Counted from the stretch's first letter, positions 4,448 through 63,950 are shown. The stretch: 64,000 bases of DNA from Nannocystis radixulma (GCF_028369095.1 NZ_JAQNDN010000024.1:345350-409349), one strand, 5' to 3'. The notes: generated from the letters alone by a model not told the origin. Numbers and translations: made by a program.

Positions 4448-5754
4448 TGCGCGTCGCGTTCGCCACGCACGGCTGTCGCCTCAACCAGTTCGAGTCCGAC
4501 GCCCTCGAACAGATGGCCCGCGCGGCCGGCCACACGGTCGTCGACGCCGAGGCCGCGCCGGAGCTGGTGGTCGTCAACACCTGCACGATCACCCACGAGG
4601 CCGACGCCGACGCGCGCCAGCACGTGCGTCGGGCCGCGCGCGCCGGCGCGAAGGTGGTGGTCACCGGCTGCTGGGCGACGGCCGCCCCCGAGGAGGCGGC
4701 GGCGCTGCCGGGGGTGACGCTGGTGGTCGGCAACCGCGAGAAGGAGCGGCTGGTGGAGCTGCTCTCGGGGACATGTGCAGATGGACATGTCCCGGAGATC
4801 CACGTGGCACCGGTCGACCTGGCCCGGCGGGTCCGCGTGGCCCGGCTGCGCCCCGCCGCCGATCCGCGGCGCAGCCGGGCGTACCTGAAGATCCAGGACG
4901 GCTGCGACTACCGTTGCAGCTTCTGCGTGGTGCCGCAGGTCCGCGGGCGCAGCGCGAGCGTGGCGCTCGACGAGGTGCGCGCGCAGCTGCAGGAGCTGGT
5001 GGCGGCGGGGGTGCCCGAGGTGGTGCTGACCGGGGTACACCTCGGGATCTACGGTCGCGATCTGCGGCCGCGGGCGTCGCTGTCGGGGCTGGTCGCCCAG
5101 TTGCTGCCGCACGTCGGGGCGGCGCGGCTGCGCCTCGGCTCGGTCGATCCGCACGAGGTCGACGACGACCTGGTGACGCTGTTGGCCAGCGAGCCGCGGC
5201 TGTGCCGGTATCTCCACCTGCCGGTGCAGAGCGGCGACGACGACACGCTGCGACGGATGCGTCGCGCCCACACGGCCGCCGACCTGCGCGCGCTGGTGCC
5301 TCGCCTCGCCGAGGTCGTGCCGGGGATCGGCGTCGGCACCGACGTGATCGTCGGCTTCCCTGGCGAGTCGGAGGCGGCCTTCGCGAACACCCATGCGCTG
5401 CTCGAGTCGCTGCCGCTGGCGTACCTGCATGTGTTCTCGTACTCGCCGCGGGCGGGCACGGATGCGGCCTGTCTTTCAGGGCAGGTCGATGCGGCGGTCA
5501 AGCAGCGCCGCGCGACGGCGCTGCGGGCGTTGTCGGCGGCGAAGCAGCAGGCGTTCGCGGCGGCGCAGGTGGGCCGGCGGGTGTCGGCGGTGATCCACCG
5601 CTCGCGTCACCGCCGGACGGGGCTGCTGGTCGGGCGCGCGGACAATGGATTGACGGTGCTGGCGGCCGGCGACGACGCGCTGCTGGGGCGGTCGGCGTGG
5701 ATCGAGGTCGAGCGGGCCGAGGGGCCGCTCGCGGTCGGGCGCCTGGTCGCCTGA
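4447..5754 (+). CDS. mtaB: MiaB/RimO-family radical-SAM methylthiotransferase (MtaB-like)
   Basis: ATG at 4447 overlaps the kinase stop (TGATG). MTTase N-domain VVNTCTIT..., radical-SAM motif CDYRCSFC, TRAM-like C-terminus. Confidence 0.85.
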   Translation: MRVAFATHGCRLNQFESDALEQMARAAGHTVVDAEAAPELVVVNTCTITHEADADARQHVRRAARAGAKVVVTGCWATAAPEEAAALPGVTLVVGNREKERLVELLSGTCADGHVPEIHVAPVDLARRVRVARLRPAADPRRSRAYLKIQDGCDYRCSFCVVPQVRGRSASVALDEVRAQLQELVAAGVPEVVLTGVHLGIYGRDLRPRASLSGLVAQLLPHVGAARLRLGSVDPHEVDDDLVTLLASEPRLCRYLHLPVQSGDDDTLRRMRRAHTAADLRALVPRLAEVVPGIGVGTDVIVGFPGESEAAFANTHALLESLPLAYLHVFSYSPRAGTDAACLSGQVDAAVKQRRATALRALSAAKQQAFAAAQVGRRVSAVIHRSRHRRTGLLVGRADNGLTVLAAGDDALLGRSAWIEVERAEGPLAVGRLVA

Positions 5755-5845
5755 GCGGCAGCGGCACGCGCGAGCGTCGAGCTCGCGTTGCCTCCACCAG
5801 CTAGCCTGGCCGCGAGGACATGTCCTGGCGGCCAGTGGCAAGCGG

Positions 5846-6661
5846 TCAGAGCGTCAGCTTCATGCCGTCGCGGGCGGCGACGGTGCTGGGGAAGTGCTCC
5901 TGCGCGGCCGCCTCGATCTTGCGCAGCATCTCGTCGTCGTGGGTCGGGTCGTGGCTGTAGAGCACGAGCTTGCGGACGTGAGCGGCGCGGGCCAGCTTGA
6001 CGGCCTCGGAGAAGGTGCTGTGGCCCCAGCCCTGCTTGCCGGCGCTGTACTCCTCGGAGGTGTACTGGGCGTCGTAGATCAGGACGTCTGCCCCTTCGGC
6101 CAGGTCACGCAGCGTCTCGTTGATGTGGTCGGGCGCGTGCTCGGTGTCGGTGGCGAACACGATCGACCTGCCGCGCTCGTCGATGCGGAAGGCGGTGCTC
6201 TCCTGCGGGTGCGGCAGCGGGATGTGGCGCAGCGTCGCCTCGGCGATGGTCGTGACCTCTTGCGGGAGCAGCTGGTGGAACAGCTTGGTCGAGCCCATCA
6301 CGTCGAGGCCGACGGGGAAGAACGGCGTCGACATCTGGCGGTCGAGGATCGTGCGCGCGTCCTTCGTGCAGTAGATGTGGAGCCGGAAGTCCGGCATGAA
6401 GGCCGGCGGGAAGAACGGGAAGCCCTGGATGTGATCCCAATGTGCGTGGGTCAAAAACAGGTGGATGACGCGCGAGTGCGCGGCTCGAGTCTGTACGAGT
6501 CGGATGCCGAGTTCGCGGATGCCCGAGCCCGAGTCGAAGATGATGGTGTCCGTCGTGCTCTCGAGCGCGATCTGAAGGCAGGGCGTGTTCCCGCCGAACT
6601 CCACGTACTTCGGCCCGGAAACTGGAATGCTGCCCCGGGTGCCCCAGAAAGTCACTTCCAT
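5846..6661 (-). CDS. MBL-fold metallo-hydrolase
   Basis: HLFLTHAHWDHIQG metallo-beta-lactamase motif; 271 aa; noticeably lower GC than its neighbours. Confidence 0.8.
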   Translation of the reverse strand: MEVTFWGTRGSIPVSGPKYVEFGGNTPCLQIALESTTDTIIFDSGSGIRELGIRLVQTRAAHSRVIHLFLTHAHWDHIQGFPFFPPAFMPDFRLHIYCTKDARTILDRQMSTPFFPVGLDVMGSTKLFHQLLPQEVTTIAEATLRHIPLPHPQESTAFRIDERGRSIVFATDTEHAPDHINETLRDLAEGADVLIYDAQYTSEEYSAGKQGWGHSTFSEAVKLARAAHVRKLVLYSHDPTHDDEMLRKIEAAAQEHFPSTVAARDGMKLTL

Positions 6662-7048
6662 GGGGCGCTATCCTTCGCTGGCTGCATGTTTCGCCGATGA
6701 TAGGGCAGAACAAATTCGGCTGGCAAGCACGGGCCCATGGCACCTCGGAGGTCGGACGGAGATGATATCGCAGTCCGGCCGCGAAGGGGCACGCGCACCA
6801 GGCGGTCGCAACCCGGTAAAGGCGCCTCGGCGGGGCCGCGGGGGAGTCGGGAAACGCCGGGGTTTTTCGCCGCCACCGGGCCGGAAGGCGCGGCTGGGCG
6901 CCCGCAGGCCACTTGCGACGGCTACCGAGGCGTGGGCGACCCGGGCCCACATGGCGCTTGGCGCGTGAGGCGGCGCCGCCGAATTCGCGCGTGGCCGATG
7001 GTTCATGGCGAAGCGCACCGGTTTATTCGGGGGGCCGATCCCGGCGAC

Positions 7049-62667: not shown

Positions 62668-62720
62668 GATGGTTCCCCGTTCCCATAGCCAACTTCGGCC
62701 CCCGCGGGAAGGGCCGCGGC

Positions 62721-63890
62721 GTGCTACACCCCCGGTCGATGCGCTCCGAGAGTGAACCCGGAAGCAAGCCTCGCGGCGCCTCCGCGAGCGTTCGCGCGCG
62801 ATTTGCGCCCGCGGCCGCGCTGGCGTCGTGCGTCGTCCTCCTCGCAGCGGGCTGCGCGGCGCGCAAGGGCGTGCCCCCGACCGGCCACAACTCGTTCGGC
62901 CAGGGCACGCGCTACATCCAAAAGGCGGTCCGCAGCAGCAACGAGGGCGTGATCATCCTGCCGTCGAAGCGGGCCGAGAACCTGTTCGACCTGCAGCGCC
63001 TGAACGAGATCGCCCAGGCCCTGCGCCCGCCCGCCGCGGCGTGCTTCGTCAACCGCGCCATCGAGACGATGAAGCGGGGCAAGCGCGACGGCGAGGAGAC
63101 GTACGTCGACGTGCCCGAGGGCCAGGTCAAGATCCGCACGCGCCTGTCGCCCGACGGCGAGGTGCTGCGCACCGAGGTGCTCGACACCGGCTTCAAGGAC
63201 CCGGAGATCGAGCCCTGCATCATGGAGGCGATCCAGGGCCGCAAGTGGATCAAGAACCGCAGCGGGGTGGTGCAGTATCTCGACGTGATCTACTGGGTCA
63301 GCCTCGGAGATGGCGCGGAGGACAGGTCGCCGCAGGCCCAGGCCGAGCTGCGCCGGCAACAGGCGGTCGCCGCCATCCGCGGCAAGGGCTGCCTCGAGCG
63401 CCGCGTCGGCGCCGGGACGTACCCGGTCGAGGGCCTCAACCTGGTCGACCGCGAGGGCAACACGCTGGTCAGCCGCGTCGAGCCCAATTCGCTGCCGCAG
63501 AAGGTCCAGGATTGCCTGTCGGTGGTGCTGCGCGACATCCAGATGCCGCGCGCGCCCAACTCGTTCGTCCGCCCGGTGTCGCCCAGGGTCGAGTACACGG
63601 TCGCGACCGACGGCACGGTCTCGTTCGCCGACGAGCGCTGGATCAACCTGGTCCTGATGGAAGAGAAGGCGGCCCGCGAAGACCGCCTGGCGGAGGTCGA
63701 TCGCGGGCTCGGGATCGCCAAGCCCGAGGAGGCGCCAGAGACCACGACGCCGGAGCCGGAAGGCGAGCCGGCCGCGGCCGGCACGGCGAGCGAGCCGGCG
63801 AGCGAGCCGAGCGAGCCGGCGCAGGACCCGGGGCAGGCGGGCATCAAGCTCAAGCTCGGCGGGCACCGCCGCAGCGAAGCGCCGCGCTGA
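62721..63890 (+). CDS. hypothetical lipoprotein
   Basis: [12 protein letters not shown] lipobox; the start is probably at about 62739 (MRSESEPG); acidic PE-rich C-terminus. Confidence 0.55.
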
Positions 63891-63902
63891 ACCTGACGTC
63901 AG

Positions 63903-63950
63903 GGACATGTCGAATAGGGCATGTCCGGGCGGGCATGTCGTGATGGCCAG
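63903..63950. repeat. 14-bp phased array, 3 units
   Basis: GGGACATGTCGAAT AGGGCATGTCCGGGC GGGCATGTCGTGAT. Confidence 0.75.

Follow-up and report, generated by a model that had tools for sequence, protein, structure and literature searches.

A 64,000-nucleotide stretch of the Nannocystis radixulma genome (GCF_028369095.1, NZ_JAQNDN010000024.1:345350-409349; referred to as the window, with positions counted from its first letter) carries a dense family of short tandem arrays built on the palindrome GGACATGTCC. With a probability of roughly 45%, we consider these arrays to be a Nannocystis-specific, REP-like family of bidirectional 3' hairpins that end or stabilize transcripts and separate convergent transcription units. 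This reading is based on the position of the arrays, their symmetry, their predicted folding, the small number of other terminators and the replacement of one array by an ordinary hairpin in a relative, from which we infer a function at the RNA level. Array transcripts, or single-stranded DNA, would fold into unit-to-unit hairpins on either strand. Such 3' hairpins would stop or pause transcription and shield the 3' ends of the upstream mRNAs, and the arrays would hold convergent transcription units apart.

Each array unit consists of the 10-bp palindrome GGACATGTCC (in practice GGRCATGTCc) and a 4-bp spacer of free sequence, and two to six units follow one another head to tail with a period of exactly 14 bp. 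The core is self-complementary, so that every unit is able to pair with any other unit. Seeding with CATG only yielded the unit a-a-G-G-R-C-A-T-G-T-C-n-n-n, that is, GGACATGTCC plus about four variable bases. The window has a G+C content of 72% and a GC skew that is positive throughout. With at most one mismatch allowed, it contained 29 matches to GGACATGTCC, compared with 1.66±1.43 in dinucleotide-preserving shuffles, and 0 of 100 shuffles reached 29. This result bears out the palindromic core of a dense phased family that had been described in an earlier note on this DNA. Pairs of CATG were found 14, 28 and 42 bp apart 25, 15 and 10 times, respectively, and at other distances about 1.3 times on average. 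The autocorrelation peaks at 14, 28 and 42 bp were sharp for CATG, ATGT and ATGTC, with nothing comparable elsewhere. A scan for in-phase units, using a position-weight matrix made from phased units, called 23 arrays of at least two units on the + strand of the window versus 0 to 2 in 20 Markov shuffles. Eleven arrays in the 64-kb window were strong (three to six units, score of at least 35), and 10 of these 11 were intergenic. Several low-scoring two-unit calls in coding sequence are probably due to chance.

The 14-bp register was examined by measuring the distances between neighbouring RCATGY cores. In the Nannocystis DNA sampled, this distance was 14 bp in 182 cases, 13 bp in 2, 15 bp in 2, 28 bp in 24, and 27 or 29 bp in none; degenerate units therefore keep the phase, as the earlier note had proposed. 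In a replicate on 46 independent high-GC metagenome contigs, 151 pairs were 14 bp apart and none 13 or 15 bp apart. When the data were pooled, the spacing was 14 bp in 333 pairs versus 13 or 15 bp in 4. The four arrays from which strict phasing had originally been deduced (starting at 29204, 42309, 48115 and 53217) were all exactly in register. Of the two to eight units claimed per array, the tandem arrangement stood but the upper limit did not: the maximum in phase was six, and the block at 53179-53281 reaches seven only with two first units at 13- and 21-bp spacing. A presumed second flavour of the repeat, CTGTCC-N4-GGACAG, turned out not to be an element of its own, its two exact sites being junctions of adjacent units in the same 14-bp register. 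Adjacent 4-bp spacers agreed at 1.48 of 4 positions versus 1.20 for random pairs, and they were identical in 16 of 231 pairs (7%) versus 1.2% of random pairs. No conserved tetranucleotide flanking the units was found. A design in which the spacers provide stop triplets in all three frames was also considered and dropped, as the counts of TGA versus TCA (62 versus 46 of 300 units) amounted to a weak excess only.

To place the arrays relative to genes, genes were called by codon usage trained on the window and cross-checked with Pfam matches and public gene calls. In the window together with 40 Nannocystis loci, an array was present in 26 of 49 convergent, 27 of 146 tandem and 1 of 49 divergent spacers; the 46 metagenome contigs, which form an independent sample, gave 30 of 63, 9 of 119 and 3 of 59, respectively. 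Expressed as percentages, about 50% of convergent, 8 to 18% of tandem and 2 to 5% of divergent spacers had an array. The nearest flanking stop codon lay at a median of 7.5 bp (5 bp in the metagenome replicate), and the next start codon was 157 bp away from the array (87 bp in the replicate). Convergent spacers were often filled by the array from stop to stop. Because of the enrichment in convergent spacers and the short distance to stop codons, the arrays are gene-end elements and not promoter elements. Their reported presence in convergent spacers is thus confirmed, whereas the location in promoters, also reported, does not hold as a rule. The flanking genes are unrelated housekeeping or regulatory genes (trpC, trpF, a Mur ligase/FolC-like gene, TldD/PmbA genes, kinase genes and rplC). 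Gene calls and Pfam agreed with the individual contexts given before, namely between trpC and trpF, between trpF and the Mur ligase gene, between hcn-like genes, and downstream of rplC.

The predicted folds of all arrays tested were better than those of shuffled sequences, with z values from -2.6 to -5.4, and were made of unit-to-unit stems. The stems predicted between adjacent units are 8 to 10 bp long with loops of 4 to 6 nt, and longer arrays would form either side-by-side hairpins or a nested outer and inner pairing, on either strand. A single unit within a 30-bp palindrome that occupies a convergent spacer (5803-5836) also speaks for hairpins. T-tract terminators between 40 and 60 kb were at the level of shuffled sequences (3 versus 3.4), and the sole convincing one in that region was within the array at 42304. 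Three genomes, those of N. radixulma, N. pusilla and a relative whose TldD is 79% identical, have an array at the site that follows the conserved TldD C terminus; a Nannocystis metagenome-assembled genome (MAG) with 67% identity has an ordinary GC hairpin at this site instead. We infer a bidirectional 3'-end role because the arrays come right after stop codons, because roughly one in two of the convergent spacers sampled is filled by one and because T-tract terminators are almost absent. A search of the whole window with the Rfam 15 covariance models at the gathering score gave no match.

All 11 strong arrays of the window scored better on the G-rich + strand, and at other loci the polarity of the array agreed with the local GC skew in 36 of 52 cases (p = 0.008). 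The asymmetry of the unit (R at -1 versus T at +4) was mirrored by an excess of G over C in the free spacers. The strand asymmetry of the arrays tracked both local GC skew and gene direction, with coefficients of 8.5±2.9 and 8.1±3.0, respectively; the dependence on gene direction is as expected if the arrays are transcribed. We do not claim a functional polarity with respect to replication, since the asymmetry is inseparable from mutational skew.

Next, the arrays were compared between species. In both comparisons made, N. radixulma with N. pusilla and strain RBIL2 with N. bainbridge, the arrays lay at orthologous sites, and no array was seen in one species that was cleanly absent from the other. 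Unit blocks were occasionally gained, for instance the additional two at 53179. In the pair of N. radixulma and N. pusilla, 2.5%, 1.8% and 5.8% of sites differed at codon positions 1, 2 and 3, respectively, 10.9% in non-array intergenic DNA (with 0.021 indel events per site), 8.2% in array cores and 26.8% in array spacers. When only strictly in-phase units were compared, the differences were 5.9% for cores and 21% for spacers (p = 6e-7). Spacers diverge about three times faster than cores in this species pair. The spacer changes were often runs of 4 to 6 adjacent differences with unchanged nonconsensus flank bases; because these bases are kept beside changed spacers, positional orthology holds in most arrays. 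The pattern suggests that the core sequence and the spacer length are protected and the spacer sequence is not, with the caveat that the cores are all alike and replacement of whole units could mimic the conservation that would be taken as proof of selection. Transmission of the arrays is vertical; they evolve through point substitutions and now and then gain or lose units. The common core may have been seeded at its many sites by a RAYT-like enzyme, through gene conversion or by selection for a factor that binds it.

The arrays and array-like elements of the window are as follows.

53179-53281, + strand: largest block, with two out-of-phase units (53179 and 53192) and then five in strict phase (53212-53281). 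The block starts 11 bp past the stop codon of the second TldD/PmbA gene, and its in-phase part starts 43 bp past it. N. pusilla and a more distant strain have an orthologous five-unit array, the two extra units being found only in N. radixulma. The predicted RNA fold has -55.5 kcal/mol (z = -4.65).

48110-48193, + strand: array of six units in a tandem spacer, separated by 4 bp from the stop codon of a minus-strand "lyase" gene (48198-49607). N. pusilla has six units in the same phase, 85% identical; the fold z is about -4 on both strands.

42304-42387, + strand: five- to six-unit array filling the convergent spacer of genes 41491-42294 (+) and 42391-43095 (-). It includes the hairpin GGGACAGGGCCCTGGCGACA, followed by a T-run on the minus strand; the N. 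pusilla counterpart is 93% identical and in phase.

29199-29254, + strand: four-unit array filling the spacer between trpF and the Mur ligase (FolC-like) gene. It starts 5 bp past the trpF stop codon and overlaps the start of the next gene; the predicted fold (-28.5 kcal/mol, z = -3.7) has nested pairing of unit 1 with unit 4 and of unit 2 with unit 3.

57123-57178, + strand: four-unit array filling a convergent spacer, with stop codons 1 bp before and 3 bp after it (fold z = -5.4). It corresponds to units 2 to 5 of one five-unit array of N. pusilla.

56579-56634, + strand: four-unit array, the sole strong array in a divergent spacer. Its right part matches the same N. pusilla array as 57123-57178, and 34 bp align to both.

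63902-63943, + strand: three-unit array 11 bp past the stop codon of gene 62871-63890 (+).

23325-23366, + strand: three-unit array 10 bp past the stop codon of a Ser/Thr kinase-TPR gene (20342-23314), with a fold z of -5.2; in N. pusilla, two units are kept and the third has decayed.

30519-30560, + strand: three-unit array in a convergent spacer, 35 bp past the Mur ligase stop codon and 8 bp before the stop codon of a minus-strand LDL-receptor-repeat gene.

43384-43425, + strand: three-unit array abutting the stop codon of a minus-strand OmpA-like gene (43425-44504); the N. pusilla counterpart is 81% identical and in phase.

28535-28572, + strand: trpC-trpF spacer with two variant units, GGGACAGGGTG, and then a perfect GGACATGTCC, all in 14-bp register. 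The candidate start codon of trpF is the ATG inside the palindrome.

39044-39071, + strand: two units (GGGACATGTCCCGA and AGGACAGGGCCTTC) directly downstream of the stop codon of minus-strand rplC (Ribosomal_L3), identical in N. pusilla.

4768-4795, + strand: two-unit array at the likely start of open reading frame (ORF) 4773-5804.

5803-5836, no strand assigned: single GGACATGTCC within the near-perfect palindrome of about 30 bp, CTGGCCGCGAGGACATGTCCTGGCGGCCAG, in a convergent spacer.

44743-44831, + strand: two-unit element (TCAGGATGTCTGAA AGGACATGTGA) in two copies 61 bp apart, a 61-bp tandem duplication of which N. pusilla has one copy.

10977-11018, + strand: weak three-unit array in a tandem spacer, adjoining the start of gene 10252-10983 (-); 90% identical in N. 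pusilla.

8603-8716, + strand: GCTGTCCGCGGGGACAKGTG in three copies, each a unit junction with a spacer of 4 nt, at intervals of 62 and 31 bp in the region separating the genes for the hcn-like small and large subunits.

17043-17098, + strand: array-like run of three good units and one variant within the coding sequence of a ketosynthase chain-length factor. The stretch encodes a poorly conserved linker, PSDMPATTCRLEQGPNDMSL, and is kept in N. pusilla.

For the run at 17043-17098, an in-frame insertion was ruled out, because homologues down to 39% identity are equally long there. The arrays at 56579 and 57123 are parted in N. radixulma by a 496-bp segment (56631-57126), and N. pusilla has a single array at this place. 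The segment carries a 127-aa ORF (56740-57123) without a Pfam match and has about 34 bp of array sequence on both sides; no further copy of it was found in the DNA sampled. The difference is due either to an insertion into an array or to a deletion by recombination between arrays. The placement of the 56579 array in a divergent spacer is secondary.

The family is not confined to the window, as the earlier note had predicted; it was recovered in several Nannocystis genomes and in metagenomes. Over the window, the N. pusilla contig is 92 to 96% identical in DNA, and the 263-aa chain-length-factor protein shares 100% identity with the N. radixulma protein and 96% with its N. pusilla counterpart. 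Three exact CATGTC cores at 14-bp spacing served as the query for scanning one genome from each species, which returned at least 115 loci. Among the matches listed, about 40 are from Nannocystis (N. pusilla, N. exedens, N. punicea, N. bainbridge, strain RBIL2, several MAGs and one Nannocystaceae MAG); they represent at least 5 named Nannocystis species plus MAGs. A score of 30 or more was reached by 76 arrays in these 40 loci, whereas among the matches listed no genome locus from outside Nannocystis had more than one array scoring at least 35. A gradient of relatives was sampled at the syntenic TldD locus. Arrays were dense in N. radixulma and N. pusilla, sparser and of a variant type, GGGCATGCCC, in the relative with 79% TldD identity, and essentially absent in relatives at 67% identity. 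Samples of 21 kb from Nannocystaceae ST9 and Enhygromyxa salina contained no arrays. The metagenome scan returned at least 120 loci, and 62 among the matches listed were high-GC Nannocystis-like contigs with variable-spacer arrays. Low-GC metagenome matches (GC below 0.56) were rejected as members of the family; those inspected were mostly plain 14-bp satellites with identical units. All nine viral contig matches were likewise rejected, as unrelated simple satellites or chance matches.

Some of the sampled loci showed features of their own. In the 79% TldD relative (L116 11354-11396, ENA contig NODE_88), the post-TldD spacer has three 14-bp-phased units of the GGGCATGCCC variant, in which both mirror positions are changed and the core is still a perfect palindrome. 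In a Nannocystis sp. MAG (L118 5680-5790, JADKFZ010000010.1), a 36-bp unit with GGGACATGTCC is present three times, adjoining or within the 5' end of a squalene-hopene cyclase gene; this lineage has the same palindrome at another period, and 14-bp arrays are absent from that region. The low-GC loci L145, L164, L183, L195 and others (GC of 0.35 to 0.55) carry GRCATGTC-core 14-bp satellites with identical units in up to 12 copies. The spacers are variable in L194/L248 and L187/L188/L200/L239, and these might be plasmid or phage iterons. The TldD/PmbA gene at 51819-53168 had no match above 86% identity in a protein search, although N. pusilla has an equally long TldD/PmbA gene in synteny (L123 6476-7825) and the genomes are about 92% identical in DNA there. 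The word-indexed search probably lacks the sensitivity to find it, and the result carries no biological meaning.

Other repeats lie near the arrays. Positions 57500-58800 form about 1.3 kb of noncoding DNA with highly structured repeats: 3.2 copies of a 62-bp unit that are 100% identical (57537-57733), 6.8 copies of a 64/129-bp tandem repeat (57913-58344), and inverted-repeat arms of 229 nt (57699-57927 and 58509-58737) that are 93% complementary and contain GGACATGTCC in each. A 28-nt inverted repeat without mismatches (57707-57734 and 57849-57876) flanks the GGACATGTCC of the first arm, and the second arm has a corresponding 51-nt inverted repeat at 76% (58537-58587 and 58702-58752). N. pusilla aligns partly inverted to this segment, which may be invertible or rearranging. 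At 38090-38271, where there is no confident gene call, tandem repeats of 47 and 100 bp each contain AAGGACAGC (a GGACA half-site). At 30580-30974, a 108-bp repeat in 2.9 copies is followed by 12- to 21-bp repeats within a minus-strand gene for LDL-receptor class A repeats; these are coding and unrelated to the arrays.

Several observations weigh against the hairpin reading, the main weakness being that hairpins leave the register unexplained. A hairpin should accept loops of 3 or 5 nt, but spacings of 13 or 15 bp are nearly absent, and the register is kept although other intergenic DNA shows frequent indels (0.021 per site). Compensatory covariation was looked for at mirror positions within the unit and between neighbours, and none was found beyond that of shuffled partners; nothing therefore indicates that selection acts on pairing itself instead of the core sequence. 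Conservation within the core peaks at the central CATG (93 to 99%), which a generic stem does not require. Folding is better on the G-rich strand, an effect inseparable from compositional skew. Compared with an intrinsic terminator, which combines a GC-rich hairpin with a U-tract, the arrays provide the hairpin and have a T-run in one array only; without a U-tract, termination of the classical intrinsic kind would not be expected. A number of arrays are internal to likely operons (trpC-trpF-folC), which is awkward for a strong terminator, and the preference for gene ends could come partly from tolerance of insertions away from promoters.

These points turn attention to a protein. A genus-specific dimer could bind each GGACATGTCC decamer, cooperatively with neighbours 14 bp apart, and so mark gene ends, especially convergent ones; we regard this as a serious rival, though a less likely one than the hairpin. 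The near-absolute register (333 versus 4) combined with a free and fast-evolving spacer sequence, the conservation of the core centre and the absence of pairing covariation all fit such a lattice. Three 14-bp units correspond to four helical turns, as cooperative dimer binding at fixed spacing would give, and the arrays possess the palindromic unit in exact register that characterizes tandem operators. There are precedents on both counts: MetJ metboxes and ω/ParG-type operator arrays are palindromic units in strict tandem phase, and E. coli BIMEs between convergent genes are reported to bind gyrase and IHF. Such a lattice might block or insulate transcription, or it might be a topological site such as a loading point for gyrase or a nucleoid protein. 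However, the binding protein is only hypothetical, with no candidate identified; known tandem operator arrays are in promoters, which these arrays avoid; the degenerate units of many arrays would bind poorly; and a hairpin explains both the abutment to stop codons and the ordinary hairpin in the relative without a new factor. Still more doubtful is the specific version in which a Nannocystis-specific protein polymerizes on the GGACATGTCC decamers at 14 bp and marks the ends of transcription units as a roadblock terminator, insulator or supercoil barrier. If true, it would be a bacterial gene-boundary system without a described counterpart. The hairpin and the protein lattice are not mutually exclusive.

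The arrays might also be a selfish miniature element without host function, its unit or unit pair being copied by a RAYT/IS200-like or other single-strand transposase and its location reflecting insertion tolerance. One core at high copy in a restricted clade, with an abundance that varies by lineage, agrees with this, as do unit-block duplications and the lineage-specific 496-bp segment between two halves of one array. Variable spacers beside conserved palindromes are also seen in REPINs, for which tandem clusters are known (PMC3337134). We nevertheless judge the idea unlikely. The arrays compared were at orthologous sites with no clean presence/absence seen, and decaying junk would show neither cores changing about three times more slowly than spacers nor a register protected from indels. 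The unit is a perfect palindrome of 10 bp, not an imperfect one of 20 to 40 nt, and lacks the GTAG-type 5' head of classical REPs. A tblastn search with RAYT and IS608 TnpA queries detected no RAYT/IS200-like ORF; since it covered about 1.2 Mb from genome loci plus 0.69 Mb from metagenome loci, and thus a minor fraction of each genome, this negative weighs little. No RAYT partner of the arrays is known. Very improbable is an origin as slippage-made 14-bp satellites or as a compositional artefact. Some adjacent spacers are shared (16 of 231 versus 1.2% of random pairs), unit-block duplications exist, and 14-bp GRCATGTC-core satellites occur in unrelated low-GC metagenome and viral contigs. True satellites, however, have identical whole units, whereas 93% of adjacent spacers in Nannocystis differ; slippage explains neither one core at dozens of unlinked sites nor the placement at gene ends, and the excess over shuffles is very large. 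The arrays are not a plain slippage satellite, because their spacers differ between units and diverge faster than the cores. Slippage or artefact is refuted as a sufficient explanation, and the purely slippage-driven amplification that the earlier note had offered as one option was not supported, with only 7% of adjacent units sharing a spacer.

Should the proposed role of the 3' hairpins be true, the arrays would show how Nannocystis genomes, which are among the largest bacterial ones (11 to 13 Mb in the assemblies seen) and have almost no T-tract terminators in the stretch tested, delimit their transcription units. They would also offer a handle for annotation, strain typing, and terminator or insulator engineering in myxobacterial producers of natural products.

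The arrays were finally compared with known repeats. A full-text literature search on the motif, on Nannocystis repeats and on myxobacterial REP/RAYT found no description, its only returns being unrelated papers and work on p53 response elements; the consensus half-site of p53 happens to be GGACATGTCC, a sequence coincidence that is irrelevant in bacteria. ERIC/IRU, Correia and MITE elements are about 100 to 150 bp long, with terminal inverted repeats and target-site duplication, whereas the arrays are 28 to 84 bp long and have no distinct termini. In size and architecture, they match neither these nor REP/BIME elements, in agreement with the earlier note. Cyanobacterial HIP1 and STRR repeats and Neisseria uptake sequences resemble the arrays as lineage-wide over-represented short palindromes or tandem units, and uptake sequences often form terminator hairpins. 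However, HIP1 consists of dispersed single 8-mers that are also found in genes, STRR of nonpalindromic heptamers, and the Neisseria uptake sequences are not known to occur in phased arrays. Bidirectional intrinsic terminators likewise have a symmetric hairpin that fills a convergent spacer and is usable from both strands; the arrays differ in having no A/U tracts save in one case, a shared stem sequence, and stems multiplied in phase. The operators of MetJ (8-bp metboxes) and ω protein (7-bp heptads) share with the arrays a short palindromic unit in two to six or more copies in exact register, bound there by cooperative dimers; those operators are few and in promoters, whereas the arrays are numerous, at gene ends and without a known binding protein.

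The closest likeness is to palindromic repeats at gene ends. E. coli BIMEs combine different REP types through defined linkers, and binding of gyrase, IHF and Pol I to them has been reported. They are palindromic clusters at gene ends, including convergent ones, with a possible link to supercoiling or termination; but in BIMEs two REP types alternate in opposite orientation with long specific linkers, and the arrays have one unit, free 4-bp linkers and a 14-bp period. REPs and REPINs of Pseudomonas, E. coli and Stenotrophomonas, which RAYT transposases mobilize, resemble the arrays in being short, palindromic, high-copy, extragenic and lineage specific, in lying at gene 3' ends, in forming RNA or single-stranded DNA hairpins, in having conserved palindromes with unconserved spacers, in occurring singly or in tandem, and in their vertical inheritance. 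Conserved palindromes with nonconserved spacers, hairpin potential, tandem clusters and a possible co-option for attenuation have been described for REP/REPIN sequences (PMC3337134). The differences lie in the unit, a perfect 10-bp palindrome here and an imperfect one of 20 to 40 nt in REPs, and in the arrangement, head to tail at 14 bp here and as inverted doublets with spacers of about 35 to 110 bp in REPINs. The arrays are REP-like in position and probably in role, but they are built differently. They add a distinct repeat architecture in which the palindromic cores are perfect, the spacers free and the 14-bp ruler enforced; neither the REPIN model nor simple slippage explains it, and it points to a new seeding mechanism or reader protein.

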